Shown piece by piece: positions 4,667 to 19,888 of a stretch of DNA of 20,000 bases. The notes below the pieces were generated by a model. The model was not told where the DNA came from and ran no database searches. It worked only from the letters and a program-made list of their open reading frames with translations. How positions within the stretch are numbered: position 1 is the first letter of the stretch; each line of letters starts with the position of its first letter. Origin of the DNA: an uncultured virus (IMG/VR IMGVR_UViG_3300021478_000027) (taxonomy: Duplodnaviria > Heunggongvirae > Uroviricota > Caudoviricetes); IMG/VR virus record IMGVR_UViG_3300021478_000027. One strand, given 5' to 3'. The position numbers and the translations under genes were made by a program.

Positions 4667-5273
4667 GGTGACGTGACATGGAGGTAATTACCCCAATGCC
4701 AAAAGCTGCTAATTTGCCTGCTAAAGATTGCGCCGTTTGCGGAACGGAGTTCATCCCAGCGCACAGTCGATCCCGATACTGCTCAAAGCAGTGCCTATGG
4801 AAGTCGAAGAACGATAGATACCGTCTCGCAAACCCCGAGAAGTACCTAGCGCATTCTCGCGCCTCATATGCAAAGCACCGAGAAAAGCGGCGAGCATACA
4901 TGCGAGAGAGATACGCAAAAGACCCAGAAGCGTGGTACAGCCGCAACGAGCTATATCGCTTGAATACTAGAAACGAACGTCCTTGGTACATGTTGCTGCG
5001 ATACGCCGAGAAACGAGCCGAGAAAAAGTCCGTCCCGTTCGACTTAACGGACGAATGGGCCGTATCTGCCTGGACCGGTGCATGCGCGGTATCTGGATTG
5101 TCGTTCGTCACTGGGCACAAAGGCCATGGCCCGCGACCACGTACGCCAAGTATAGACCGCATCGAACCATCACTTGGATATGTACAATCCAACTGTCGAT
5201 TCGTCATCCATGCCGTCAATGCCCTGAAGGGCGACGGAACGGAAGAAGAAATGATGGAAGTGGTGCGATCCAT
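4644..5273 (-). CDS. Antisense 'bridge' ORF over endonuclease 1 (209 aa, no recognisable protein family)
   Basis: Starts shortly after the MCP stop, in the MCP frame, and ends at the TAA abutting the next gene's GGAG. Codon choice in the endonuclease avoids creating stops in this frame. Confidence 0.4.
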   Translation of the reverse strand: MDRTTSIISSSVPSPFRALTAWMTNRQLDCTYPSDGSMRSILGVRGRGPWPLCPVTNDNPDTAHAPVQADTAHSSVKSNGTDFFSARFSAYRSNMYQGRSFLVFKRYSSLRLYHASGSFAYLSRMYARRFSRCFAYEARECARYFSGFARRYLSFFDFHRHCFEQYRDRLCAGMNSVPQTAQSLAGKLAAFGIGVITSMSRHHNTMLVA

Positions 5274-5292
5274 ATTACTTCGTCATTCCTAG
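4696..5292 (+). CDS. Free-standing His-Me finger (HNH-like) homing endonuclease with an N-terminal Zn ribbon
   Basis: CAVCGTEF...YCSKQC zinc ribbon; CAVSG...PSIDRIEPSLGYVQSNCRFV...N..K nuclease motif. Start moved to ATG 4696 based on the GGAGGT RBS. Confidence 0.75.
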   Translation: MPKAANLPAKDCAVCGTEFIPAHSRSRYCSKQCLWKSKNDRYRLANPEKYLAHSRASYAKHREKRRAYMRERYAKDPEAWYSRNELYRLNTRNERPWYMLLRYAEKRAEKKSVPFDLTDEWAVSAWTGACAVSGLSFVTGHKGHGPRPRTPSIDRIEPSLGYVQSNCRFVIHAVNALKGDGTEEEMMEVVRSILLRHS

Positions 5293-6335
5293 AATGTATT
5301 CCCGCCAATGCCGGTTATTATAGCGTTACTTGACGGCTTGCTGCTCACAACATTGTACCCGAGTACGACAACCCCCTGCTGTCCGATCTGACCCAGCGGG
5401 ACCAGCGAGTAGAACCCGCTAAAATCGAACGCCGCGTCTTCCGACAGGTACATCGAGGTGTATTTCGAGTTGATGAAATAGGCCGTGCCCTGCGGGCAGA
5501 AGTGATCGGCAAAAATCGGCACGCCTGCGACATTGAGGTTCGGGAACGCCGAGCGAACCGGCGTCGCCATCGTGTACTCGTTGCCAGGCCGGGTAAAAAT
5601 CTGCTCGACGCCCACAAAGCTGGTGTTCAGCGTCGCAAAGTCGCCGGGGGACATCACGACCATCGTCGGCGACTCACCACCAGCCAGGTCAGTGATCTGA
5701 ATCAGCGCCGCAGCCATCGCCGAGCGGCTGAACCCAGCCGTCGCGACCGTGCCCGTCCCCGAAACAATCGCCGTGCCAGCAATGACATTGCCCTTCCAGG
5801 ACGTGTTGCCGGGCGATGTGCGGTTGATGCCGCCGTATGTCGCCACCGTCGCGCCGTTGTCGAAGCCATCAACGAAGCTATTCGGCAGCAGCGTGTTCGC
5901 CGTGTTGTTCGAGAACAGCAACCCGCCGACATTCTGGACGGTGACCGACCAAACGTCGTTCATCCGCGCCTTCAAGAGCGAAATCTCGCGATCCGTCGCC
6001 TGGATCACCGTCTCGCCAAACGGCAGCGGCACCGGCACAACCCAGTAACAGGTAGGGAACTGCGCGTTTTGCACACCGGGCGTCACGACAGGGCTATTAA
6101 ATCCACCGCCATAGCCTGTAAATTGCCCCTGGACCATCGATTGGCCCTGAATTGGAATTGTGATTTGAGATAAACCGCCAGCACTTTTCTGTGCAGCGCC
6201 AAGTAAATAGAATAATGTTGGCGTGGCGAAGTAAATTTGGACAAACAACCTTGGGACGAAAGCCCTCCTTGTCGCCGCGGTGAGTTCGTTATATAACGAA
6301 CCTGTAGGTACTGCACCCTGACCAGGAAGCGGCAT
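5289..6335 (-). CDS. Major capsid protein
   Basis: 348 aa. The N-terminus ELTAATRRAFVPRLFVQIY..TP...L...Q..GG.S.ITIP.QG matches my recollection of Bcep22-like podovirus MCPs. YGGINR and GVPIFADHFCP.G.AYFINSKY fit an HK97-type fold. RBS GAGGG. Confidence 0.88.
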   Translation of the reverse strand: MPLPGQGAVPTGSLYNELTAATRRAFVPRLFVQIYFATPTLFYLLGAAQKSAGGLSQITIPIQGQSMVQGQFTGYGGGFNSPVVTPGVQNAQFPTCYWVVPVPLPFGETVIQATDREISLLKARMNDVWSVTVQNVGGLLFSNNTANTLLPNSFVDGFDNGATVATYGGINRTSPGNTSWKGNVIAGTAIVSGTGTVATAGFSRSAMAAALIQITDLAGGESPTMVVMSPGDFATLNTSFVGVEQIFTRPGNEYTMATPVRSAFPNLNVAGVPIFADHFCPQGTAYFINSKYTSMYLSEDAAFDFSGFYSLVPLGQIGQQGVVVLGYNVVSSKPSSNAIITGIGGNTF

Positions 6336-6339
6336 TTTA

Positions 6340-7212
6340 TCAGTTCCCTCTTACTTGACAACGCCGCAGGGTAGGGGTATACCAGTAATTGCCAAACCAC
6401 TGGAGAAACCCATGCCCACGACCACACTCATTACTACAGAATGTGCCAATTGCGGCGGAACGTTCTCGGCTAGAGCAAAGGCGGGAGAAACAAAGCGCTA
6501 TTGCTCTAAGGCGTGCATGATCGCTTACGAAGCAAAACATGGTAGGCCAGGCCGAGCGCGCTCTGAACGAATTAAGTTCACTTGCCAGAATTGCAGCAAG
6601 GAATTTCTGATGCTTCCCGGATTTCTTAATGCCTATCGCATTAAGCACGGGCGCGACCCGCTGTATTGTTCGAGGCAATGCCACGGCATCGCACGGCGAA
6701 CACATACCGCCGATAACGAACAGTTTTTCTCTTGCGAGCAATGCAGAAAGGAAGTTGCGCGGCGCCGATACCAACGTTCTACAGGCCACAACAAGTTTTA
6801 TGCTCAGCAACGCTTTTGTAGCCCCGCCTGCAAGCACTCTTGGTTTGCCAGCCGCGCTGAACAACGATTTTTGAACGGCGAAATTGGGCGCCACGTAAAG
6901 CGGCACGGTTACGTCTGGCTGTCTTTGCCGGCCAATCTCAATGGCGGACAGAAAGGAGAAGTTCTTGAGCACCGCTACGTCATGGAGCAGCACCTTGGGC
7001 GGAAGCTTCTGCCTGAAGAGACGGTGCATCACGTCAACGGCGACAGACAGCACAACAAGATTGAAAACCTTGAGCTTTTTTCTAGCCGCCACGGTCCAGG
7101 ACAGCGCGTAATTGACAAAATCGCTTTCGCGATCGAGATGCTTCGCCTGTACCCCGACTTCGCCGCCGAGCAGGGCGTCAAATTGGTTGATGTCGAGCGC
7201 AGCGACTGACAT
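6340..7212 (-). CDS. Antisense 'bridge' ORF over endonuclease 2 (~290 aa, no recognisable family)
   Basis: ATG overlaps the upstream TGA (TGATG); the frame stops 4 nt before the MCP ATG. Confidence 0.4.
   Translation of the reverse strand: MSVAALDINQFDALLGGEVGVQAKHLDRESDFVNYALSWTVAARKKLKVFNLVVLSVAVDVMHRLFRQKLPPKVLLHDVAVLKNFSFLSAIEIGRQRQPDVTVPLYVAPNFAVQKSLFSAAGKPRVLAGGATKALLSIKLVVACRTLVSAPRNFLSALLAREKLFVIGGMCSPCDAVALPRTIQRVAPVLNAIGIKKSGKHQKFLAAILASELNSFRARSAWPTMFCFVSDHARLRAIALCFSRLCSSRERSAAIGTFCSNECGRGHGFLQWFGNYWYTPTLRRCQVRGN
6355..6383 (+). promoter_or_regulatory. sigma70-type promoter for endonuclease 2
   Basis: TTGACA (6355-6360), 17 nt, TATACC (6378-6383); RBS GGAG at 6402-6405 before ATG 6412. 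Confidence 0.65.
6412..7209 (+). CDS. Free-standing HNH homing endonuclease with three Zn-ribbon repeats
   Basis: Three CxxC...(Y/F)CSxxC units, then EHRYVMEQHLGRKLLPEETVHHVNGDRQHNKIENLELF (HNH_3-type motif). Start moved to ATG 6412. Confidence 0.85.
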   Translation: MPTTTLITTECANCGGTFSARAKAGETKRYCSKACMIAYEAKHGRPGRARSERIKFTCQNCSKEFLMLPGFLNAYRIKHGRDPLYCSRQCHGIARRTHTADNEQFFSCEQCRKEVARRRYQRSTGHNKFYAQQRFCSPACKHSWFASRAEQRFLNGEIGRHVKRHGYVWLSLPANLNGGQKGEVLEHRYVMEQHLGRKLLPEETVHHVNGDRQHNKIENLELFSSRHGPGQRVIDKIAFAIEMLRLYPDFAAEQGVKLVDVERSD

Positions 7213-8747: not shown

Positions 8748-8945
8748 ATGATACAATCGCGACGCAAGCTAGGAGCCAAGCAAGCGGCTCATGCACTTGG
8801 CGTCAGCCTAAAGACGCTGGCCACATGGAGGCGTCTAAAGCTTGGCCCGCCGTTTTTCAAAGTGAGTAGAAATCTTTGCCTATATGATGAAGAGGAGCTA
8901 GATCGCTGGCTCCAAAAAACGCGAGTGGACCCAAATGGGAGCTAA
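8748..8945 (+). CDS. AlpA/excisionase-like (MerR-type winged HTH) DNA-binding protein
   Basis: QAAHALGVSLKTLATWRR..LGPPFFKV....LY..EELDRWL pattern. Confidence 0.8.
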   Translation: MIQSRRKLGAKQAAHALGVSLKTLATWRRLKLGPPFFKVSRNLCLYDEEELDRWLQKTRVDPNGS

Positions 8946-9120
8946 AGACTTCACTTCCGAAAAAGGGGCCAAGGAACTTTGCTCTAGAATCGTCGAATAT
9001 TGGAAAAATCAGGGATTTTCAAAGGTCATGGCGGCACCGGTTCCGCTCAACACGGTGGCGCGCTGGTCAGACAACTGGGGCATAAAATCCAACATCGGGC
9101 TTAATGGGCCACCGGCATGA
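8935..9120 (+). CDS. Small hypothetical phage protein
   Basis: 61 aa, overlaps both neighbours (ATGA overlap with the GT2 gene). Confidence 0.6.
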   Translation: MGAKDFTSEKGAKELCSRIVEYWKNQGFSKVMAAPVPLNTVARWSDNWGIKSNIGLNGPPA

Positions 9121-10037
9121 AGGTCTCCTTCATCGTTCCCGCGCGGAATAAAGAGCATTTTATCCGCAATACGGCGCAATCGGTTCTCTTACAAACCTAC
9201 TCGCCGATGGAAATCGTCTTTAGCGACCAGGGGTCGACCGACGATACGCTCGGTATCCTGCTCGATATGGCCGAAACCTATAACGGCCCCAACACCGTCC
9301 GCGTTATCCAATGCCCCCATACCGAGCGAAAGGGTATGCCGGGGCTTAATGCTCACCTCAACTGGCTACACGGCCAGATCGATAGCGATATCGTCATCAT
9401 GTGCTCGGCGGACGATCTGAACAATTCAAAGAGAGCAGAATTAACGGTAAAGGCATTCGAGGAACACGATCCGTCTTACGTCAATACCGGGGTCATCTAC
9501 CTCAACCCAAACGACCCAGAAGACCTCCCAAAGGTCACTGCATTCCCCGACAAGTCGAGTCGCTGGCTCCAGCCTGCCGAAACAATCAAGCACCAGATCG
9601 GATCATCCGGCTCATCCGCGTGGGCACGCGACTTGTACGAAAAGCACGGACCGCTGGAAGGTTGCGAGCAGCAGGACATGATCCTGCCGATGATGGCGCT
9701 GATCGAGCGCGGCATCTATTACGTGGATGAGCCGCTGCACACCTACATCGCGCACGCCTCACTCGATAACACCGGGTTCATCGGCCAAATCAATGCCGCC
9801 GAGAACGAAGTACATAAGATGCAACTCGTCGAGCTGAACGATTTTATCAACGTCTACAACTGGACAAACATCCTGCGGCGCTGGACCGAGCTGCCGGAGC
9901 AATTCGCCGCGCTCGCCAGCGATGACGCAGCCATGAACGCCCTCACGGAAAAGATCAGCAACTGTGCTGATGCGTGGTCCAACGTGCGCAACCACATGAT
10001 CATCAACGATGTCTACCCGATAAAGATGAGGACGTAA
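9117..10037 (+). CDS. Glycosyltransferase family 2 (GT-A fold)
   Basis: VSFIVPARN...SVLLQTY..EIVFSDQGSTDDT N-terminus and SADD (DxD-like) motif. Confidence 0.88.
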   Translation: MKVSFIVPARNKEHFIRNTAQSVLLQTYSPMEIVFSDQGSTDDTLGILLDMAETYNGPNTVRVIQCPHTERKGMPGLNAHLNWLHGQIDSDIVIMCSADDLNNSKRAELTVKAFEEHDPSYVNTGVIYLNPNDPEDLPKVTAFPDKSSRWLQPAETIKHQIGSSGSSAWARDLYEKHGPLEGCEQQDMILPMMALIERGIYYVDEPLHTYIAHASLDNTGFIGQINAAENEVHKMQLVELNDFINVYNWTNILRRWTELPEQFAALASDDAAMNALTEKISNCADAWSNVRNHMIINDVYPIKMRT

Positions 10038-10228
10038 TGCGTGATCCCTTTAAGGCTGATATCCGCCCAGACAAGTGGATGGACTGGATTCGTATTACCG
10101 AAGAGCAATTCGGCACAGTTTTGCGATTATCCTCAATGGGTGAAAGTTTGCATCTGACAGCTCGAACGGCTATGGAGCTGAAGGCTGTAATCGACGAATG
10201 GCTCACGCTTCCAATGCCGATGCAATGA
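10037..10228 (+). CDS. Small hypothetical protein (63 aa, MRDPFKAD...)
   Basis: TAATG overlap with GT2 and ATGA overlap with GT9. Confidence 0.6.
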   Translation: MRDPFKADIRPDKWMDWIRITEEQFGTVLRLSSMGESLHLTARTAMELKAVIDEWLTLPMPMQ

Positions 10229-11265
10229 AGAAGTGGTGCTGCATCTGTCGCTTGGGTAGTATCGGAGATGATTTAATCGTCTCGTCAGTATTACCATTAT
10301 TAAAACGCCAAGGGTACATGATCGAGGTCATGGCGCAGGAGCCGAGCCATGTGGTCTTTGAAAACAATCCGTACATCGATAAGCTCACTGTTCTCAAGAA
10401 ACAGGACTTACCTGATAACAACGCCGACTGGCAAAAATACTTCGTCGGACGCTCCCACGAGTACGATAAGTTCTATCACCTCAGCCACTCCATCGAGTCC
10501 CATGTCGCCTTCCACCCCGACAGCACCTGGTTCTGGTGGCCCGACACATACCGCCGCCAGTTAGCCAACAAGTCGTACCTCGCACTAACCCACGACATCT
10601 GCGAGCTACCGCACGAGTTTGCGCCTGAGTTCTTCCCCACGGAGGAAGAGCGCGACAAGGCGCTGGAGACGAAAGAGAAGATCGGCAAGCAGTTCATCGC
10701 TTGGGTGATTGCCGGCTCGCGGCTCGATAAGCTCTATCCGTACAGCGCGATGGCGGTGGCGCGACTGATCGTCGAGACGGGGCTGCCGGTCGTGATGATG
10801 GGTGGCACACCAAAGGAGTTCGAGGCGGCTCAGTCAATCATGGAGCATGTCGGGCGACAAAACGGAACAACAGATGGGCTGCATCTCGCCATGAAGGCCG
10901 TTGAGGGTGAGAACCTGTGGCCGCTGCGGCGGTCGCTCACCTTCATTCAGTACGCCGACCTGGTGATTTCGCCAGATACGGGGCTGGCTTGGGGCGTCGC
11001 ATCGCGGCCAATGCCCAAGATCATGCTGCTCGGCCACGCCTCACCCTTCAACATCACCCACGGCTGGGTTAATACAACCACGCTACACGCCGATCAGGAG
11101 CGGGTGCCATGCGCCCCGTGCCACCGACTCCACAACGACGCGTCTACCTGCGTCCCAAACAAGGAGAACAACGGCGCGGCTTGCATCTCGGACATCACCG
11201 TTGAAGATATCCTTAAGGCAGCAAAATCATGCTTAGTCCCGCCCCATACGACCCTAAATGGCTAA
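10225..11265 (+). CDS. Glycosyltransferase family 9 (heptosyltransferase-like, GT-B fold)
   Basis: RLGSIGDDLI, NNPYIDK, ADLVISPDTGLAW and a C-terminal CAPC...C...C cluster. Start moved to ATG 10225. Confidence 0.85.
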   Translation: MKKWCCICRLGSIGDDLIVSSVLPLLKRQGYMIEVMAQEPSHVVFENNPYIDKLTVLKKQDLPDNNADWQKYFVGRSHEYDKFYHLSHSIESHVAFHPDSTWFWWPDTYRRQLANKSYLALTHDICELPHEFAPEFFPTEEERDKALETKEKIGKQFIAWVIAGSRLDKLYPYSAMAVARLIVETGLPVVMMGGTPKEFEAAQSIMEHVGRQNGTTDGLHLAMKAVEGENLWPLRRSLTFIQYADLVISPDTGLAWGVASRPMPKIMLLGHASPFNITHGWVNTTTLHADQERVPCAPCHRLHNDASTCVPNKENNGAACISDITVEDILKAAKSCLVPPHTTLNG

Positions 11266-11495
11266 CCCATGAATGGGTTGACTCACCAACCAATTCGTAC
11301 TGGACGCCAAAACCCAAGGAGCAAAGAATGTTTGGCGCAGAATACAAGCTCGTTGCCAATGCCACGGTCCTGACCGCAGACGACGTTCTGGAGCGAGAAA
11401 TCCGCTCGCGCGAAAGCAACTCCGATGATGTATTGTTCCTGCTGAGGCGTCTCGATGAGGCGCGCGCGAAGGATGGGGCAGCGGAGACAGTCTGA
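11229..11495 (+). CDS. Hypothetical protein
   Basis: 88 aa filling the gap; its TGA overlaps the next ATG. Start uncertain. Confidence 0.5.
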   Translation: MLSPAPYDPKWLTHEWVDSPTNSYWTPKPKEQRMFGAEYKLVANATVLTADDVLEREIRSRESNSDDVLFLLRRLDEARAKDGAAETV

Positions 11496-11890
11496 TGGCA
11501 AATATTAGCGCTTATGCCGGCAAAGCGATGCTGGATTGGACATTGCTCGGCGCCACGCCGACGCGGCCCGCCAATAGCTATGTCGGCATCGGGTTGGCAG
11601 CACCGAACAGCACCAACGGCTCTGAAATCGCGACCGGATCGGGCATGACGCGGCAAACCGTGGCATTTTCCGCCGCCGGATCGCCCGCCAATCTCGCCGG
11701 AAACAACGTTGCAATGACCTTTGGCCCCATTTCCGCCGCTGCCACGGTGATCGGCGTCCAGATTTGGGACACGGGAGCTGCTACGGTCGGCAATATGCTC
11801 TATTTTGCTTCGTTGACCACCTCACGCACCATGAACGGCGGCGATTTCCTATTATTCAGCGTCGGATCGCTCGCTGTCTCGTTAACTTAG
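11495..11890 (+). CDS. Small beta-rich phage fibre-associated structural protein
   Basis: S.Y....LD......P...YV......P....E.......R..V.F.......N.....F.........I.D.....GN.L....L........GD...F..G.L...L pattern of a widespread ~130-aa phage fibre protein family. Confidence 0.7.
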   Translation: MANISAYAGKAMLDWTLLGATPTRPANSYVGIGLAAPNSTNGSEIATGSGMTRQTVAFSAAGSPANLAGNNVAMTFGPISAAATVIGVQIWDTGAATVGNMLYFASLTTSRTMNGGDFLLFSVGSLAVSLT

Positions 11891-11908
11891 GCACGGGCAA
11901 ATGCCGAC

Positions 11909-12127
11909 GTGCTTACAATAGAGAAATACGTCGATCTACGTTTGCGCTTCTTTGAAGGGAAGAACATCGACCTAGTCGGCGCGCGCATGGAAAAAATGGT
12001 TCATGACGCGGGTTACGTTTTCCGATGGCTTGAACTCGATACAAAGATCGCGCCGGAGTGGCGAGATGGCCGTGTCAACGTGCTAGTTAACAAGGCGCAC
12101 GTCATCACGCGGATCACGGTAGGTTGA
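11909..12127 (+). CDS. Potato-I/I78 peptidase-inhibitor-like small protein
   Basis: C-terminus EWRDGRVNVLVNKAHVITRITVG matches the D(Y/F)R..R.N...d....i.....G inhibitor signature. Confidence 0.5.
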   Translation: MLTIEKYVDLRLRFFEGKNIDLVGARMEKMVHDAGYVFRWLELDTKIAPEWRDGRVNVLVNKAHVITRITVG

Positions 12128-12128
12128 C

Positions 12129-15100
12129 ATGACGATCTCACGGGTCGGGGCAGCCACCGGAACGACCACTTGTACTGTGCCAACTCACAGTATCGGCGAC
12201 CTTATTCTCATCGGCGCTTTCCGCCAGACAACCGCGACATCGCCGTCTTTGCCCGCTGGCTATACGAGTATTGCAAACGGCACAGCAACAAGTTGCGCGT
12301 ACCGTTGCGGCTACAAGATCGCGACTGCAACGAACGACAGTTCGGGAACCTGGACAAATGCGACCGCGATAACGTGCGTTGTTTATACGTCAGACCAAAT
12401 CGCCGCTGGTGGCGCAATCAACATCGGCGGACACCTTGGGAGTAGTGCGGCCACCAACCCGGTTAGCTATGGCGGCATTACGCTAAACTACACTGACGGC
12501 GCATCGTGGGTCTTTGCATTCAGCGGAAATCGGAGCCCCACTAATTCGGTCCAGACGCATCCTCCAACTGGGATGACGCTCATCGCGAGCAGCGACCTGG
12601 TAAACACCGTTGAAGTCTGCGCATTCGACACCAATGCGGGCGTTTCCAGTTGGTCGACCCAGACCACGACGCTGTCGACCGCGACCGGGTGGGGAACCAC
12701 GGTCGTTGAAATCTTTGAGACCAACTATGCGTCGGCGATCATCAATAGCGTCCAGCACCGCTCGACCAGCTACAACAATGTCGCCGCCGTTAACGAGCCG
12801 CTCGAAAATTTCGCGGTCGCTTTGCCCGATGCGACCCAATCCGGGCAAGGTCTCGTTTGCGCGGTCGCTTATCCTAGCGGCGCGACGCCGAGCATCACAG
12901 ACGACCAGGGCAATACCTGGCCGGCATCCGGCGCAGCGGGCACGGTCACCGCTGATGCTGGCGGCGGGGCGATGGCGATTCAGATTTTCCGCCTCGCCAG
13001 CGCCGCCGCAAATACGCGGATCGTAACGGTCGGTTTTGGCGGTAGCCCGCAGCAGCCAGTCAAAGTGTGGCTGGAGAAGCTTTACAATATCACCGGAACC
13101 GTTAACGGGTCCAAGACTGGAACGAGTTTAAATACGCTCGGCACGGTATCGCCGGGATCGTTCACGCCAACCAACAACAACGCTAATGGCGGTAACCTGA
13201 TCCTGGCCTACATGGTAGCCCAGGGAACGTCCAATAGCACTAACCCGACTGATATCGCCCCGGCGCGGGGGTATTTCCTTCAGGACGCCGACATCGGCTG
13301 GGTCAGCGGCAACGGTATCCCGAGCGCCTCGCAGGCGTTCCTGCAGACGACCGCTGCCGCGACTACGCCGATGTTCACGCTTCAGGGAAGCGGAACAGAC
13401 ACGTACATCGTCGCAGCGATTGCACTCTCGGTCGGGACGCAAGGCTCTGACGACAGTCGAACCAATGGACATATAGATCGGATTATCGAGTACGCCACTA
13501 ATACAGCGGGGTCGCCGTGGAAGAATAAAACCCCGATGAGCGGCACGACCGGCCTGATAATCGGTTTCGTCGCGGGCACACCAACGAATAATACGGTCAC
13601 GTCTGACAACGGAACTAATACCTGGACTACGATTGAAGGGGCAGCCGGGTCACCATATTTTAATTATTTTCAAGGCTTAACGGCTAGTTCTTCGAGAGAG
13701 GTGTCGCAGACATTCACCGGCAGCGGTAATGGCCAATTCGTTTTCTACGATCTATCTAACTTAGATACTGGAACTGCGCCGGTTACGGCTGGAGTTGGCT
13801 CTACAGCGGCAAATAACGTAGCGTCGATTGCAAATCAGCCGAGCATAACGCCGTCGTCAGCTAACGGCGTCGCGTTCGGTAACCTGCAAAATGGTTTGGG
13901 GCCGACGAACGGCATAACCTCACCATCTGGCGCTCTTTTTGACTGTCCGCTTTATCAGACCGGCCAATTTACGTTCACGCAATCTGGTACTACCGCAAAC
14001 GTATCAGCAGTCGCCTGGGGCCAAGTCTACGGTGACGGTATTACAGGGGTAACCGGCTCGGGCGTGGCGAATGGTCAGTCGAATCAATCGGCCACATCAA
14101 GTTCTACCGGTAACCGAACCTTCAACATTAGCCAGACGCTGGGGACCACAACAGGTCATACCACGTCAACCGACAGCTCTAGCGTAAATTGGGGTGAAGG
14201 ACTCGCGCACGTCTTTACGACTAGCACTGCGGCGCTGAATTTTACATGGAACATCGCGAGTCAACCGGCATCGTCTGTGTCATCCACGGCGATTTGGTTC
14301 AAGGCTGCGGCGAGCACAACAAACTGGCAAGGCGCTGCGAATTTCACGGGTGCTGGTGCGTTCACGGCAAACGCCCAGCTTATCGAGGCATCGCAAGCGA
14401 CATTTGCCGGGGCAGGGCTATTCACTGCTAACGCAACGGCGCAGTTCGCAGCACAGGCGACGTTTGGGGGCGCTGGCAGCTTTACTGCCACTGCGACGAT
14501 GCAGTTCGCCGCACAAGCAACGTTTGCCGGGGCCGGTAGCTTTACTGCGACCGGCTTACCCGTCGATTTCGGGTTTGCGAACTTCGCGGGGGCAGGCAGC
14601 TTTACTGCCAATGCTGGACCAGCTGTCCTCGCTGCGGCGGCGAACTTTGGCGGTGCGGGGCTTTTCACCGCCAATGCCCAACTGATCGAGGCTGCGCAGG
14701 CGACATTTGCCGGGGCCGGGTCATTCACGGCTAACGCTACGGCACTGTTTGCGGCGCAGGCCACATTTGCCGGCACAGGTGCCTTTACCGCCAATGCGAC
14801 GACCCAAATCGCCGGTCAGCAGGGCGCGGCAAACTTTAATGGTGCGGGATTATTCACCGCCAATGCCTCACAGCCGCAACGATCAGCGGCTGCTAACTTT
14901 GCCGGAGCAGGGCTCTTCACCGCCAACGCCACCGTGCAGATGGCGGCACAGGCGACATTCGCAGGAACGGGCGGATTCACGGCCACTGCCGCATTGCGCA
15001 TGCAGGCGACGGCCTCGTTTGCTGGCGCTGGTGCTTTTACCGCCAACGGCAATGTTCCACAGCATATCGCCGCGCAGGCCACATTTGCCGGGGCAGGATC

Positions 15101-15593
15101 GTTCACTGCCAATGCAACCACGCAGGGCGTCACCACATGGACAGGCGCAGCGGCGTTCGCCGGATCAGGCACATTCATTGCCTCAGCGACGGTCCTATCT
15201 GCCGCACTCCCCGTGCCAAACGGGCGGTGGCGGCCCGTCTTCGATACCAGCTACGTCCACACCGTCATCGCCGGTCCACCGCCACAATTCCTTACACCCT
15301 CATTGCGCGAGACCGGCTTCACGCTATACTTTATCTCGCCGGCGGCGGGCGATCTTCCCGCCGGCGCCGTGCTCATTCTGACGCGACCGGACGGATCGAC
15401 AATAAGAGTGCCGGCGGCACGTTTTTATACCGGCATCAACGATCCGACATTCAGCATTTACCTCACCCAAGGCACCTATGCCGCCTACGTGACTAGCACC
15501 GACCTCAATCAGCAGGGTACGTGGAGCATCGAAATCAAGGACGCAGCCAACAACAACATCAGCGGCATCGGATTTTTCAGCGTCGCCGCGTAA
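12129..15593 (+). CDS. Large fibre/adhesin-like virion protein: Ser/Thr-rich beta domains, 14 ~20-aa repeats, C-terminal Ig/BppU-like domain
   Basis: 1154 aa; the C-terminus LILTRPDGS...Y.....DLNQQGTWSIEI resembles BppU-type anchors. Confidence 0.7.
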   Translation: MTISRVGAATGTTTCTVPTHSIGDLILIGAFRQTTATSPSLPAGYTSIANGTATSCAYRCGYKIATATNDSSGTWTNATAITCVVYTSDQIAAGGAINIGGHLGSSAATNPVSYGGITLNYTDGASWVFAFSGNRSPTNSVQTHPPTGMTLIASSDLVNTVEVCAFDTNAGVSSWSTQTTTLSTATGWGTTVVEIFETNYASAIINSVQHRSTSYNNVAAVNEPLENFAVALPDATQSGQGLVCAVAYPSGATPSITDDQGNTWPASGAAGTVTADAGGGAMAIQIFRLASAAANTRIVTVGFGGSPQQPVKVWLEKLYNITGTVNGSKTGTSLNTLGTVSPGSFTPTNNNANGGNLILAYMVAQGTSNSTNPTDIAPARGYFLQDADIGWVSGNGIPSASQAFLQTTAAATTPMFTLQGSGTDTYIVAAIALSVGTQGSDDSRTNGHIDRIIEYATNTAGSPWKNKTPMSGTTGLIIGFVAGTPTNNTVTSDNGTNTWTTIEGAAGSPYFNYFQGLTASSSREVSQTFTGSGNGQFVFYDLSNLDTGTAPVTAGVGSTAANNVASIANQPSITPSSANGVAFGNLQNGLGPTNGITSPSGALFDCPLYQTGQFTFTQSGTTANVSAVAWGQVYGDGITGVTGSGVANGQSNQSATSSSTGNRTFNISQTLGTTTGHTTSTDSSSVNWGEGLAHVFTTSTAALNFTWNIASQPASSVSSTAIWFKAAASTTNWQGAANFTGAGAFTANAQLIEASQATFAGAGLFTANATAQFAAQATFGGAGSFTATATMQFAAQATFAGAGSFTATGLPVDFGFANFAGAGSFTANAGPAVLAAAANFGGAGLFTANAQLIEAAQATFAGAGSFTANATALFAAQATFAGTGAFTANATTQIAGQQGAANFNGAGLFTANASQPQRSAAANFAGAGLFTANATVQMAAQATFAGTGGFTATAALRMQATASFAGAGAFTANGNVPQHIAAQATFAGAGSFTANATTQGVTTWTGAAAFAGSGTFIASATVLSAALPVPNGRWRPVFDTSYVHTVIAGPPPQFLTPSLRETGFTLYFISPAAGDLPAGAVLILTRPDGSTIRVPAARFYTGINDPTFSIYLTQGTYAAYVTSTDLNQQGTWSIEIKDAANNNISGIGFFSVAA
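14325..15197 (+). repeat. 14 tandem coding repeats, consensus AAQATFAGAGSFTANA (~60-72 nt period)
   Basis: Counted in the translation from WQGAANFTGAGAFTANA to WTGAAAFAGSGTFIASA. Confidence 0.9.
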
Positions 15594-15604
15594 GGAGAAA
15601 CAAC

Positions 15605-15823
15605 ATGCCCAGCATCTTCGATGACCTTAATGCTGTTACCCGAAAAGTTTGTGCCCCAACGCTTGCCCGCCAAATTTTAACGAAATCGATTTTGATTAAA
15701 AACTTGGAGCGTGAGCATCCCCCGATTCCGCCAACATGGCGACAAAAATTCCATTGGTGGTTCCGTGAGAAAAGAATACGCCTTGGTGAAATTATCGCGG
15801 GACAACCATTTAACGAGGATTAG
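15605..15823 (+). CDS. 72-aa protein whose N-terminus resembles the MCP N-terminus
   Basis: Strong RBS (taAGGAGaaacaacATG); MPSIFDDLNAVTRKVCAPTLARQI... Confidence 0.7.
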   Translation: MPSIFDDLNAVTRKVCAPTLARQILTKSILIKNLEREHPPIPPTWRQKFHWWFREKRIRLGEIIAGQPFNED

Positions 15824-15825
15824 AC

Positions 15826-16554
15826 ATGCACGATTATGTTTCGCCGAATTTCACAACGATCCTGGACCCGAGCAAGGCGTTTCCGTATCGACTCAACGGA
15901 TACCAACGCACGACTTATATCGGCGAGATCGAACGGGCCGACCCGCACAACTGGGAATACGACGAGCGCTGGCCCCCAACGGGCTTCGTCAACAAGGACG
16001 AGGCCCATATCCTCTATCACCTGGCGCGGCAGTTTCGCGGCAAAGCTGCGCTGGAGACGGGTTGCCACGTTGGGTTTTCCGCCTGGCATCTCCTAAAAGC
16101 CGGGGTCAATCTTTCGATCTGCGATCCTATTTTGTTTGTCCCGGAAATGCGGAAGGCCGTTGTCGAGGCGCTATCTGAGTTCGAAGGACAGTATCAGATG
16201 ACCGGGTTCCCTAGCCCGCAAGCGGCGCTCGAACTCGGCGAGAATCATGGTCCATGGTCATTCGTCTTTATCGATGCAGTGCACCACACCCCACACCCAA
16301 TCATAGATGCCGCTGCTGCCGCCACGCACTGCGCGGCTGATGCGATGATCGTCTTTCACGACGCCATCATCCCCGCCGTGTTCGAGGGTGCAGGGTTTCT
16401 AAAGATTTGCGGCTGGCAGCTTAAGATCTACGACACATCGCAGATGCTGGCGGTCTGCTACCGCGGCAATGTCGAACTGGTCGATCACATTCCTGACGAG
16501 GCGATCCGCGCGCTGCCGATCCCGAATTATTTGGAACCGTACATTCCGCGCTAA
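15826..16554 (+). CDS. Class I SAM-dependent methyltransferase (Methyltransf_24-like)
   Basis: ALETGCHVGFSA (motif I), FVFIDAVH, IVFHD; RBS GAGGA. Confidence 0.85.
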   Translation: MHDYVSPNFTTILDPSKAFPYRLNGYQRTTYIGEIERADPHNWEYDERWPPTGFVNKDEAHILYHLARQFRGKAALETGCHVGFSAWHLLKAGVNLSICDPILFVPEMRKAVVEALSEFEGQYQMTGFPSPQAALELGENHGPWSFVFIDAVHHTPHPIIDAAAAATHCAADAMIVFHDAIIPAVFEGAGFLKICGWQLKIYDTSQMLAVCYRGNVELVDHIPDEAIRALPIPNYLEPYIPR

Positions 16555-16560
16555 ATGAAT

Positions 16561-17895
16561 TTATTTGGTGAGATTCGTTACCTGCCCGCTTGTCAACGCG
16601 ACCGTTGGCCAAAGAGAGACACGCTGGATCGTACCGTTCCACTGAAGAGTTCCATCACCGCGCGACCCGATATTGACAGCGGTCATTCCTGACGCTCCCG
16701 TCAAAGCAACCGCGCCCTTTACGATTGTGCTCTGCGCCAAAACAGGTGCGACATTGAGCGTCCCGTTGAAAGCAAAATTCCCGACCGTGCCGCCTGTTCC
16801 GGCCGGTGTGTTTCCCGCGTTACCGGTGGACGCGATGCGATACAAACCAGAAGTGTTTGTGTTAGTCCCGTCGCTTACCCAGTAAAGCGCCTGATTGCTG
16901 GCAAAGGTGGCGGGCGCTGCCGGCGTGCCACTCGCGAAGTCCGTATAGGCGCTACCGATAGAGGGCACCGTCGTCACCGCCACAACATCCGCCGCTCGCG
17001 TCACAGTCGCATTCGTCGTTTTAATCGGTGTCGTCGCAAAAGCGCCCAATTCAAGTTGCGGCCAGCCGATACGCAGCGTCACGTTGACGGGTTGGCCGGT
17101 GGTCGTGACGAACGCTAGCAGAAAGTTCACGGCGCCCGCCGTGGCGTCTGGAAGCGTATACGCCTCGAAACACCGTTGCGACGTTAACGACGCAACTGTA
17201 GGGACAGAGCAAGTGCCAGCGCCTTGGCTTAAAAAGCCCAAACCTGCTGTAAGCGATTGAATGACGGCCACAGTACTCGAAATATTTGTCAGATTACCGC
17301 CGACAAGTTTAATAAAAACCGATCCGGTCCAGACTTGATTTTGAGAAGCCGGCGATGCTGCCGCGTCGAACGACAAAACCCAGCTTCCGCTCGCATCGGG
17401 AGTTCCGACAACCTGAAGATCGATATAATTGATACCACTCTCGGTTCCGGTTCCGATAACGTTTGTCGTAAGAGAATCCGCGACAGCAATAGTCCAGTTT
17501 GTCGGCAGCGTCCCCGGTGTGCCAGCAACGGCCCCGACCATCGTGTTGTTGCGGGTCGAATTGGTCCGCGCTTCTTCGACTGTCAGACCGACATTGGTAA
17601 TTCGCGCGATATTGTTGGCGAACGAGGACCAATTACCGCTCGCATCGACGGCAGTACCGACCGACGCGCGTGTTACCGTCAAACAGGTCGCAGCGCTGAC
17701 GCAGGCGGGAGTGCCATTCTGATAGTATGACCCCGCAGAAAATATGTAATCCAGGCCAGGGCTGGTCGCGCCGCCCCGTGGATAAACCATAGCAACATCG
17801 GGGACGCCCGCCCCTAATCCCATGCTCTGCGCATAAGCTGCTGCTGGGGCTAGCAGCGCCAGCGCGATTACCAGCAGGCGGTCACGGCAGCGCAT
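16561..17895 (-). CDS. Head-spike fibre protein (RcGTA GhsB/Rcc01080-like) with a predicted signal peptide
   Basis: MGLGAG, LTVTRAS.GT, GLTVEEARTN and QLELGAFATTPI.T....VTRAAD motifs; N-terminus MRCRDRLLVIALALLAPAAAYA-Q. Confidence 0.75.
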   Translation of the reverse strand: MRCRDRLLVIALALLAPAAAYAQSMGLGAGVPDVAMVYPRGGATSPGLDYIFSAGSYYQNGTPACVSAATCLTVTRASVGTAVDASGNWSSFANNIARITNVGLTVEEARTNSTRNNTMVGAVAGTPGTLPTNWTIAVADSLTTNVIGTGTESGINYIDLQVVGTPDASGSWVLSFDAAASPASQNQVWTGSVFIKLVGGNLTNISSTVAVIQSLTAGLGFLSQGAGTCSVPTVASLTSQRCFEAYTLPDATAGAVNFLLAFVTTTGQPVNVTLRIGWPQLELGAFATTPIKTTNATVTRAADVVAVTTVPSIGSAYTDFASGTPAAPATFASNQALYWVSDGTNTNTSGLYRIASTGNAGNTPAGTGGTVGNFAFNGTLNVAPVLAQSTIVKGAVALTGASGMTAVNIGSRGDGTLQWNGTIQRVSLWPTVALTSGQVTNLTK

Positions 17896-18182
17896 GTCGT
17901 GTTCGTCGACATCAGTTTGGTTACAGCAAACGGCAAAATTTGCCCAGTCTGAACGTTAGCAATTGTCACGGCGGCTGTGTCCTGCGCACCGATGATCGCG
18001 ATGTTGCAAGCCGACGCATCACCAATCTGCAATCCCCGCGTTGGTGTAAACGTGGCGGTATCGCTCTTGGTCAGCGCGCGAAACTGACTGCACTGATTAA
18101 GTGTCAGGCTGCCTTGAGCCGGCGTTTGCGCCAATGCAGCGGTTGGCAGCAGCAATAGTGTGATCAGTGCGATCGTTCGCAT
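17868..18182 (-). CDS. Head-spike base protein (RcGTA GhsA/Rcc01079-like) with a predicted signal peptide
   Basis: ALTKSD....PTRGL.IG...V.TGQILP..V..LMSTNTT....W pattern; N-terminus MRTIALITLLLLPTAALA-Q; RBS AGGGGAG. Confidence 0.75.
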   Translation of the reverse strand: MRTIALITLLLLPTAALAQTPAQGSLTLNQCSQFRALTKSDTATFTPTRGLQIGDASACNIAIIGAQDTAAVTIANVQTGQILPFAVTKLMSTNTTCAAVTACW

Positions 18183-18193
18183 TGTCTCTCCCC

Positions 18194-19888
18194 TTAATGG
18201 CGTCCCCCACGCCCGTGCGTCAGAATCTCCGGGTGCTCCCGAATCATCTCGGCCTTCGCCTTCTCTCTCTCCTTCAGGCGTTCAAGTTTAATGTCCTTGT
18301 GCTCGAACGGCAGATCTTCGATCCCGTCTTCGGGCCCGAGGATGCCGGCCTTAATGCCGTAAGCGATCAGGTTCGTGTGGTCATCGTGGAAGATCGGCGA
18401 ACTGCTGTGGCTATCCACGCTAACCCGGCGATCGTCGGGCAACTGATCCAATGTGAAGACGCTGTTCTCGTCTTCGGGATGTGTCCACGTCGCAGTGGCG
18501 TCTTTGGCCTGAAAAAGAGTTAGCGTCGCATCGGCGGCAGCGGCGCATTGGCGCTCGACCAGCAACGAGCGATCCCGCAAGCGCGGGCTGGCGTTGCGTT
18601 GCAGCGTATCGGCATGAACGCCCGCCCGCACACCGGCTTCGCCTTGGCCGGAGAGAATATTCGAAAAACCCGAGGCCCGGTCCATCAAGTTCAAAATTTC
18701 TTGGATAATCGGCAGCATCTGCTCGGGCATATGCGGGGTCAGGTCTTTAATCGTACTGCCTTGCGCGACCGAAACGGTTCCGGGAACGCGTGTCATCTGC
18801 GCGTAGATTTCATCGGTAATCGCATCGACGCCTTCAAAGCCGAGAACCTTATCGATCTGGAGCGCCATCAGCCGCTTCGTGTCGTCCAGATGCTCCGTCA
18901 GCCAGTTTTGCAGCATCATCAGATCGACCAACTCCGAGCGCCCCCAGAAGTAATTGGCGACAAAGTTGGGTTGCACGAGCTGATAGGGGCCCGTGTCCTT
19001 GCAGAAAAGGTTGCAGTGCTTAAAGCGAGGAGCGATCAGGATATCCGGCTCAATAAGCTGGATCGTCGTGTAGTCCTCCCCGCCATCGCGCATGTCGTCG
19101 CGGACCCAGAGTTCGTGCATCGGAAAGAGTTCGACGGCGATCGTCGGCCCCAGCGTGGCCATGTTGGGATCATTGGACAACTGGACGATGCCGCCGGGTT
19201 GCGGCTGCGTCATGTTTTGCAGACTGGTATTCAGAACGGCGGTGGACAAAACCTGATGCATAAAGCTGGTGGGCTGACTGCTCGCATTGTCCTTGTTGGA
19301 TGACCCGAGGATACGTTTGTAAAGTTTTTCGGGTTCGGGGAGATTGCGGATACGGCGCCAGACCTGGTGCTTGTTCAGCCAGATCGTCTCGACAAAGGCT
19401 TCCTGGTCGTGCAAATCGTTGACCGATTCATCGAGCACGCCAAACTGATGCGGCAAGACGAGGCGCGCTCCGCGGTAATGAAACGCGCTGTCCGAGCCAA
19501 TGCCAGCAAGTTGCTTGATCAGACACGAGCCGTATTTCAGCGCCTCGGCGACAGCATGCCCGAATATCATGTCGATATTGTGCCGTTCCCATTCACGAGA
19601 GACATGGCGGGCGACAACCGAGCCTTGCTCCTGGATGTTCTTTGGGTAGCGGTTCTCGAAATCGAGAGCGAACCGGAGACCGGACGGGCTGAACAGGTGC
19701 GATGCCAATCGGTCGATGTGGCCGTAGAGCATGTTAGCCAGCGCCAATCCGCCAGCAGGGCGACCCGTCTCACACCATTGATAGTATTGCCGATAAGCAG
19801 CTTCGCGCTGACCGCGACTGACGCGGCACGCCTCAATGATTTCCGTCGAAAACGGGACGAGATCCTTGATGGTAGTCGGGATTCTCAT
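18194..19888 (-). CDS. Portal protein
   Basis: 564 aa; ANMLYGHIDRL..HLF.P, A..ALKYGS..IK, YFWGRSE, ASGFSNILSGQG..GVRAG pattern of podoviral portals; lies upstream of the head genes. Confidence 0.8.
   Translation of the reverse strand: MRIPTTIKDLVPFSTEIIEACRVSRGQREAAYRQYYQWCETGRPAGGLALANMLYGHIDRLASHLFSPSGLRFALDFENRYPKNIQEQGSVVARHVSREWERHNIDMIFGHAVAEALKYGSCLIKQLAGIGSDSAFHYRGARLVLPHQFGVLDESVNDLHDQEAFVETIWLNKHQVWRRIRNLPEPEKLYKRILGSSNKDNASSQPTSFMHQVLSTAVLNTSLQNMTQPQPGGIVQLSNDPNMATLGPTIAVELFPMHELWVRDDMRDGGEDYTTIQLIEPDILIAPRFKHCNLFCKDTGPYQLVQPNFVANYFWGRSELVDLMMLQNWLTEHLDDTKRLMALQIDKVLGFEGVDAITDEIYAQMTRVPGTVSVAQGSTIKDLTPHMPEQMLPIIQEILNLMDRASGFSNILSGQGEAGVRAGVHADTLQRNASPRLRDRSLLVERQCAAAADATLTLFQAKDATATWTHPEDENSVFTLDQLPDDRRVSVDSHSSSPIFHDDHTNLIAYGIKAGILGPEDGIEDLPFEHKDIKLERLKEREKAKAEMIREHPEILTHGRGGRH

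Follow-up and report, generated by a model that had tools for sequence, protein, structure and literature searches.

The window analysed here is the whole 20,000-nucleotide stretch of DNA from an uncultured Caudoviricetes virus, and it is part of a tailed-phage virion region (Table 1). Head and tail structural genes, recognised by their PHROG matches, are situated below the major capsid gene, and a 104-aa and a 444-aa ORF come directly after a 564-aa gene, on the same strand as the head genes and in the virion operon. The 564-aa product gave no family, PDB or other structure matches and is labelled from its place; in relatives, its counterpart is followed by the small head genes and by that of the major capsid protein. 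Family and structure searches with the putative terminase of the window gave no matches either.

Table 1. Positions of the spike genes, their predicted parts and two further virion genes in the 20,000-nucleotide window.
Feature	Positions	Strand	Remarks
564-aa gene, upstream of spike base	18194..19888	-	Portal by position only; no signal peptide
Spike base ORF, 104 aa	17868..18182	-	
Predicted signal peptide of spike base, 18 aa	18129..18182	-	Cleavage A-L-A↓Q; GGAG ribosome site upstream
Mature spike base, 86-aa jelly-roll (modelled)	17868..18128	-	Homologue of Rcc01079 (RcGTA) and of the Carin-1 spike base; N29-Q30 motif
Cysteine pairs of spike base			C59/C97, clade-wide pair; C31/C103, second pair, common to closest relative
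Fibre ORF, 444 aa	16561..17895	-	
Predicted fibre signal peptide, 22 aa	17830..17895	-	Cleavage A-Y-A↓Q; ATG 27 nt inside base gene
Plug peptide Q-S-M-G-L-G-A-G	17806..17829	-	Predicted mature N-terminus of fibre
Fibre body	16561..17805	-	Low-confidence linker; head-spike fibre domain, residues 106-302; CBM4/CBM22-like beta-sandwich (modelled)
Major capsid protein	5289..6335	-	NF033394, 85.2 bits (cut-off 80); phrog_9953; no signal peptide; presumed docking partner of spike base

A preliminary description of this DNA had called the products of the two ORFs a head-spike base and a head-spike fibre, and both identifications were borne out as follows: The 104-aa product scores 31 bits against NF048002 (RcGTA-type head spike base; curated cut-off 28), and its model (mean pLDDT 81) superimposes on 6tb9_A1 with a Z of 10.4 (rmsd 1.9, 72 residues aligned) and on the Carin-1 base 8cjz_h with a Z of 9.9 (rmsd 1.7), the next unrelated structure reaching only Z 4.7. 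An ESM Atlas search with the base returned unnamed viral clusters only (scores 0.84-0.85). The 444-aa product scores 51.5 bits against NF048003 (head-spike fibre; cut-off 36) over residues 106-302, and Foldseek matched its model (pLDDT 84.7) to CBM22 and CBM4 structures with E values of 8e-5 to 1e-3. Profile and modelled fold identify the 104-aa product as an RcGTA-type spike base and the 444-aa product as a head-spike fibre whose fold is CBM-like. The CBM4/CBM22-like fold suggests a fibre of the sugar-binding type, and neither the family nor the structure searches gave a catalytic match for it. The fibre domain also matches Azospirillum phage Cd (37%).

The RcGTA spike proteins, which we take to be those labelled GhsA and GhsB, offer the closest comparison. 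They are a base, Rcc01079, and a fibre, Rcc01080 (PDB 6TB9; PMC7296036), and that paper describes residues 2-10 of the fibre, with alternating hydrophobic and Gly residues, as binding five pockets of the base pentamer, which is itself attached to the capsid pentamer by its N-termini through Glu12 and a cation. The window spike resembles this one in base fold, base-then-fibre gene order, mature base length (86 aa here and 84 aa in the RcGTA chain), the hydrophobic-Gly plug at the predicted mature fibre N-terminus and the sugar-binding type of the fibre. It differs in that both proteins begin with predicted signal peptides and carry Cys pairs, in that the fibre gene starts 27 nt within the base gene, and in that the Glu12 cation link to the capsid has no evident counterpart in the base. 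The term "signal peptide" does not occur in the main-text portions of the RcGTA papers PMC7296036 and PMC10218006, and in that of PMC5026251 it occurs in the methods and references only. The base of Cobetia phage Carin-1 (PDB 8CJZ chain h) has the same fold and stands in a solved phage capsid, but at 92 aa it has no room for a signal ahead of the domain, and its residues opposite C59 and C97 in the alignment are not Cys.

The N-termini of both products begin with a basic n-region, continue into an h-region that is hydrophobic and free of charge, and end in an AxA c-region, and a rule-based scorer (not SignalP) places cleavage after residue 18 of the base and residue 22 of the fibre. Among 856 long ORFs from 80 loci that surround related capsid genes, the same scorer was positive on 10, and several of these 10 resemble true signal peptides. 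A16 and A18 are nearly invariant among 14 aligned signal-bearing bases, and the base and fibre sequences, on inspection, have neither a lipobox nor a membrane anchor. With the calls, the conserved AxA and the low background in agreement, the Sec-type signals first described on both proteins are upheld, and the sequences argue strongly that base and fibre are Sec and SPase I substrates that would be exported and cleaved. Cleavage is called by rule only, and the leaders could in principle remain uncleaved as signal anchors, holding spikes ready or tethering capsids at the inner membrane. We consider this very unlikely in view of the near-invariance of the AxA, the Gln found at +1 in 37 of the 68 signal-bearing Cys-pair bases among the best 150 of 3,330 matches (below), and the fact that an uncleaved leader would precede the plug, which begins at residue 2 in RcGTA according to PMC7296036.

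Could the hydrophobic N-termini instead be chance extensions, with the true starts internal? An in-frame Met lies at the fibre plug (ATG at 17823), and neither this ATG nor the one at 17895 has a clear ribosome site before it. However, the base has a GGAG site ahead of its only upstream ATG, and the upstream fibre start is conserved, as follows: The fibre ATG (17893-17895, minus strand) is spelled by the codons for Thr96 and Cys97 of the base, and across 29 homologous loci codon 96 ends in A 20 times and in G 7 times, compared with 47 of 295 other Thr codons that end in A. From this -27 overlap start, 23 of the 29 loci have an ORF for which a signal is called; in 18 of these 23 next genes Met is missing from the Met25 position, which is Phe or Ile in 9. 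Because 18 of the 23 homologues lack that Met, a start at 17823, which the preliminary description had set against the fibre signal, cannot be general, and we rejected it. Together with the even numbers of cysteines described below, these observations largely refute the idea of chance extensions, to which we give almost no weight.

The overlap of the two genes and the lack of a clear ribosome site before the fibre make translational coupling probable. A cysteine that is likely to form a disulfide is tied to this coupling through the shared start codon in 24 of the 29 loci. We also considered whether Cys97 is kept solely to supply the start of the next gene, and rejected this: at four loci (L036, L057, L060 and L075) the next gene begins after the stop codon and Cys97 is retained, the next gene still has a signal-like start, and Cys59 is as fixed as Cys97. 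Wherever both could be read, including the loci without overlap, the base and the plug-bearing partner encoded by the next gene are both signal-bearing.

The four cysteines first noted in each mature protein were confirmed in both ORFs: C31, C59, C97 and C103 in the base, and C65, C71, C229 and C242 in the fibre, with a fifth fibre cysteine, C3, inside the signal. All 14 signal-bearing bases in one alignment and all 21 in another have C59 and C97; many of them were fetched with Cys-containing patterns, and the survey of 149 bases given below is the less biased test. C31 and C103 occur together in the base and in its closest relative, and the pair is absent from the other 11 sequences of the alignment. 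From such co-occurrence, the base would have disulfides C59-C97 and C31-C103, and the fibre the local disulfides C65-C71 and C229-C242. The nearest full-length signal-bearing relative of the fibre shares C65 and C71 and has four further cysteines at other places, and one fibre relative (P0031) has the C65/C71 pair and no signal at its called start. The closest relative retains the base (84%), whereas its fibre differs and an adaptor is present; the fibre body is therefore swappable.

Signals and cysteines are associated across base homologues. A profile built from 21 sequences and confined to the mature part of the base matched 3,330 representatives at E <=0.001, and we surveyed the best 150, less one 3,016-aa repeat protein, leaving 149 bases. 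Among these best matches of the 3,330, 68 bases have both a signal call and the Cys59/Cys97 pair and 67 have neither (62 with Cys at neither site, 5 with Cys at one); nine have the pair without a signal call (eight of them have a signal by eye and one starts at the domain), and five have a signal without the pair. Fisher's test for this association in the 149 bases gives p 6e-26, a value that overstates the case because the profile favours Cys-bearing matches and the rows are related. An independent-pairs test found only 2 pairs on supported branches (p 0.5), and a quick 75-column tree, drawn to ask whether the signal-plus-Cys bases go back to a single origin and with most of its forks open, needs 11 label changes as against 50 for shuffled labels. 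The mature Cys count of the 68 signal-bearing pair bases in this best-150 set is 2 (53 bases) or 4 (15 bases), and never odd. Among ORFs with any Cys at 15 loci, the window included, 48 signal-bearing ones have an even number and 5 an odd number, compared with 26 even and 32 odd for the other ORFs, related genes in both counts not being independent. Cysteines in signal-bearing proteins thus appear from these sequences to be gained and retained in pairs.

The fibre body behaves differently. A signal was called in 16 of its 120 relatives; 12 of these score well, the query included, and 7 of the 12 have no mature Cys, so a strict coupling of signal and cysteine there is unsupported. The co-occurrence that the preliminary description had suggested testing across homologues holds for the base and is loose for the fibre body. 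Five bases with a signal and no Cys pair (P0229, P0237, P0243, P0245 and P0263) are scattered among plain bases in the tree and are perhaps separate gains of export; another (P0242) has the L-N-Q motif of the clade with neither signal nor Cys pair, and may have gone back to being cytoplasmic or have had its start miscalled. A related base matched 83 cultured-phage records. Eight of these were examined, and their bases, of which the six annotated ones are 82-89 aa long, have no signal, apart from one weak call (score 2.7).

The hydrophobic-Gly peptide lies at the start of signal-less fibres and after the cleavage site in signal-bearing ones. M-G-L-G-A-G in the window is placed immediately after the predicted cleavage site, and it is shorter than the five-residue pattern of Rcc01080. 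With the plug freed at the fibre N-terminus and the base cut to 86 aa, cleavage would restore the known RcGTA geometry.

We propose that the locus is a mobile head-spike cassette whose parts are rerouted through the host Sec pathway as follows: One late operon would give base and fibre by coupled translation (the overlap is seen directly). Sec export of each chain would follow, with signal peptidase I cleaving at AxA↓Q, a step for which the sequences argue strongly, and the mature chains would fold outside the cytoplasm and form the four disulfides named above. Cleavage would free the hydrophobic-Gly plug, which by homology would seat in the base pentamer as it does in RcGTA. The finished spikes would wait in the periplasm and bind capsid vertices once lysis breaks the inner membrane, providing a sugar-binding head appendage that makes the first contact with capsule or exopolysaccharide. 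We put the probability of this whole explanation at about 0.58. Its parts differ in strength. Export signals and paired cysteines on both spike parts make folding outside the cytoplasm very probable, and we hold Sec export, cleavage, disulfide folding and plug-in-socket assembly there with high confidence. Joining of the head at lysis is the least certain step, toward which the balance leans modestly. Periplasm and Dsb presuppose a double-membrane host, which is an assumption for this phage. Low-sensitivity searches of GTDB contigs with two patterns gave no host matches, a pattern search of phage and plasmid records with the spike base (also of low sensitivity) gave none, and the capsid protein matched two records only, both without host assignment.

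The above results agree with the preliminary description on identity, export signals and extracytoplasmic disulfide folding (by family, fold and comparative tests), but do the finished spikes join heads, or do they serve as free or surface proteins, the two end uses between which it left the matter and between which the evidence is still divided? The docking arm bears on this. After cleavage the arm of the base is similar in length to that of RcGTA, without an acidic residue at the aligned place; about Leu28 aligns with Glu12. Among the best 150 of 3,330 matches, 54 of 62 plain bases have acidic residues in the arm compared with 29 of 68 signal-bearing pair bases, and the N-Q motif occurs in 67 of 77 Cys-pair bases compared with 3 of 72 others, a comparison that the profile biases. 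The N-Q motif recurs in cassettes across six unrelated capsid families. To judge from the sequences, it might serve as a clamp that does not depend on the capsid, form a contact within the pentamer, or indicate that the capsid has been given up as the partner. The lack of a clear Glu12 counterpart, the less acidic arm and the single N-Q motif across unrelated capsids count against head joining, and late-operon placement, the sole base copy and the record of Cellulophaga phage phi10:1 (below) favour it. Gene context and phi10:1 favour addition to heads at lysis; given the altered arm, a free or surface role is the less probable alternative.

How is the cassette distributed? The gene after the base in related soil-type phage contigs encodes a fibre or a plug-bearing adaptor of 60-75 aa, further fibres come next, and related phages have 3-6 signal-bearing genes in a row inside the virion module, with capsid, portal and tail core genes that carry no signals. 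The cassette was found beside six PHROG capsid families (9953, 212, 1357, 10, 267 and 3437). Five of five near-complete virus records have a single base match, which is a signal-bearing gene (these are matches and not copy numbers); all five have capsid genes, most have terminase and replication genes, and three have endolysin or amidase matches. One cassette-bearing record has an integrase, and one has a small lipoprotein-like gene near its endolysin. Within the lineage of the window phage itself, 85 loci with related capsid or portal genes were fetched with their flanks, and a base was found in 1 of them; these flanks do not reach as far as the 11.5 kb that separate the base from the capsid gene in the window. 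Two portal relatives run from portal through to capsid without a spike base, and a 99%-complete capsid relative gave no spike-base matches. The cassette is accessory in this lineage.

This accessory distribution, the integrase, and an altered docking arm common to six capsid families would also suit a complex that is exported and disulfide-folded and is no part of the virion, one held in the host envelope or shed to act as receptor mask, decoy or adhesin of the infected or lysogenic cell; the phage has, moreover, signal-less fibre-type genes at 11495-15593 of the window. We think this unlikely: the genes stand in the virion operon, co-oriented with the head genes, no lipobox or membrane anchor was seen in the base and fibre sequences, and the patterns tried (of low sensitivity) gave no cellular-genome or plasmid matches. 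If the complex did remain on the cell, a virion part would have been repurposed for the host envelope. A second alternative is that the proteins are soluble tools of lysis, sugar-binding and sugar-cutting proteins stockpiled in the periplasm and released free to clear capsule or biofilm for the progeny. It draws on two of 14 proteins tested from other cassettes, signal-bearing neighbours that score over the Pfam cut-off for pectate-lyase-like and arabinofuranosidase families. The fibre here, however, has a binding-module fold without a catalytic match, and a free enzyme would not need the conserved pentameric socket and plug; we rate such tools as scarcely more probable than the signal anchors considered above.

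For attachment of exported spikes to heads at lysis, phi10:1 provides a partial parallel. Its accessory tail-region proteins gp091-gp094 (NC_021802) have signal-like N-termini, and the record marks their detection by virion MS/MS. They differ in that they have no evident homology to the spike base or plug, have few cysteines (2, 0, 2 and 0) and have cleavage that is predicted only; they possibly co-purified rather than being virion parts.

Tailed-phage particles are taken to assemble wholly in the cytoplasm. The coat proteins of filamentous phages are exported by Sec with cleaved leaders, and pIII also has disulfides. They resemble the window proteins in being virion proteins with cleaved leaders and, for pIII, in the disulfides; they differ in that filamentous virions are built at the membrane during extrusion, whereas cytoplasmic assembly is expected for the tailed-phage capsid here. 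A literature search missing most subscription journals found no published report of exported head spikes. The spike families themselves are already known, and their export is the new aspect.

A socket and plug with cleavable export signals would be a small, structurally defined test case for a periplasmic assembly line that is finished at lysis. Lysis-time joining, if true, would explain how phages use disulfide-stabilised adhesins, predicts infectivity that depends on host Sec and Dsb genes, and suggests a route to display disulfide-rich proteins on tailed phage heads. More broadly, we see about even odds that many uncultured tailed phages assemble in two compartments, with heads and tails made in the cytoplasm, disulfide-locked spikes and fibres made in the periplasm (Sec and Dsb) and the two joined at lysis, the spike cassette, of structurally known socket and plug, being a portable unit of that pathway whose shared N-Q arm attaches it to capsids of at least six unrelated families.

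Several other features of the window and its relatives were seen. An opposite-strand block (8748-16554, plus strand) lies between the spike genes and the head genes; it holds an HTH gene, two glycosyltransferases (PF00535 and PF01075), a methyltransferase, a gp80-type fibre gene (PF23140) and the gene of a fibre-like protein of 1154 aa that has no signal and repeats A-Q-A-T-F-A-G-A-G many times; the block is possibly a cytoplasmic fibre and virion-glycosylation unit. The block is missing at the corresponding place in the portal relatives L159 and L160. Two HNH-type endonuclease genes (4678-5292 and 6412-7209, both plus strand) stand on either side of the major capsid gene, on the opposite strand to it. 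A capsid relative (72%) whose record has no base encodes, in its tail region, two Cys-rich proteins that begin with signal-like sequences (L083, 15405-18736), and another locus (L071, 1-1091) has the signal-less twin of the cassette layout, namely a base without the Cys pair, a 74-aa plug-bearing adaptor and a fibre. Finally, three cassette proteins (L047 at 5818, L056 at 11845 and L076 at 11830) have in common a mature N-terminal Q-V-G-x-P-W-P-G-P-G tag, which is perhaps a second type of plug.
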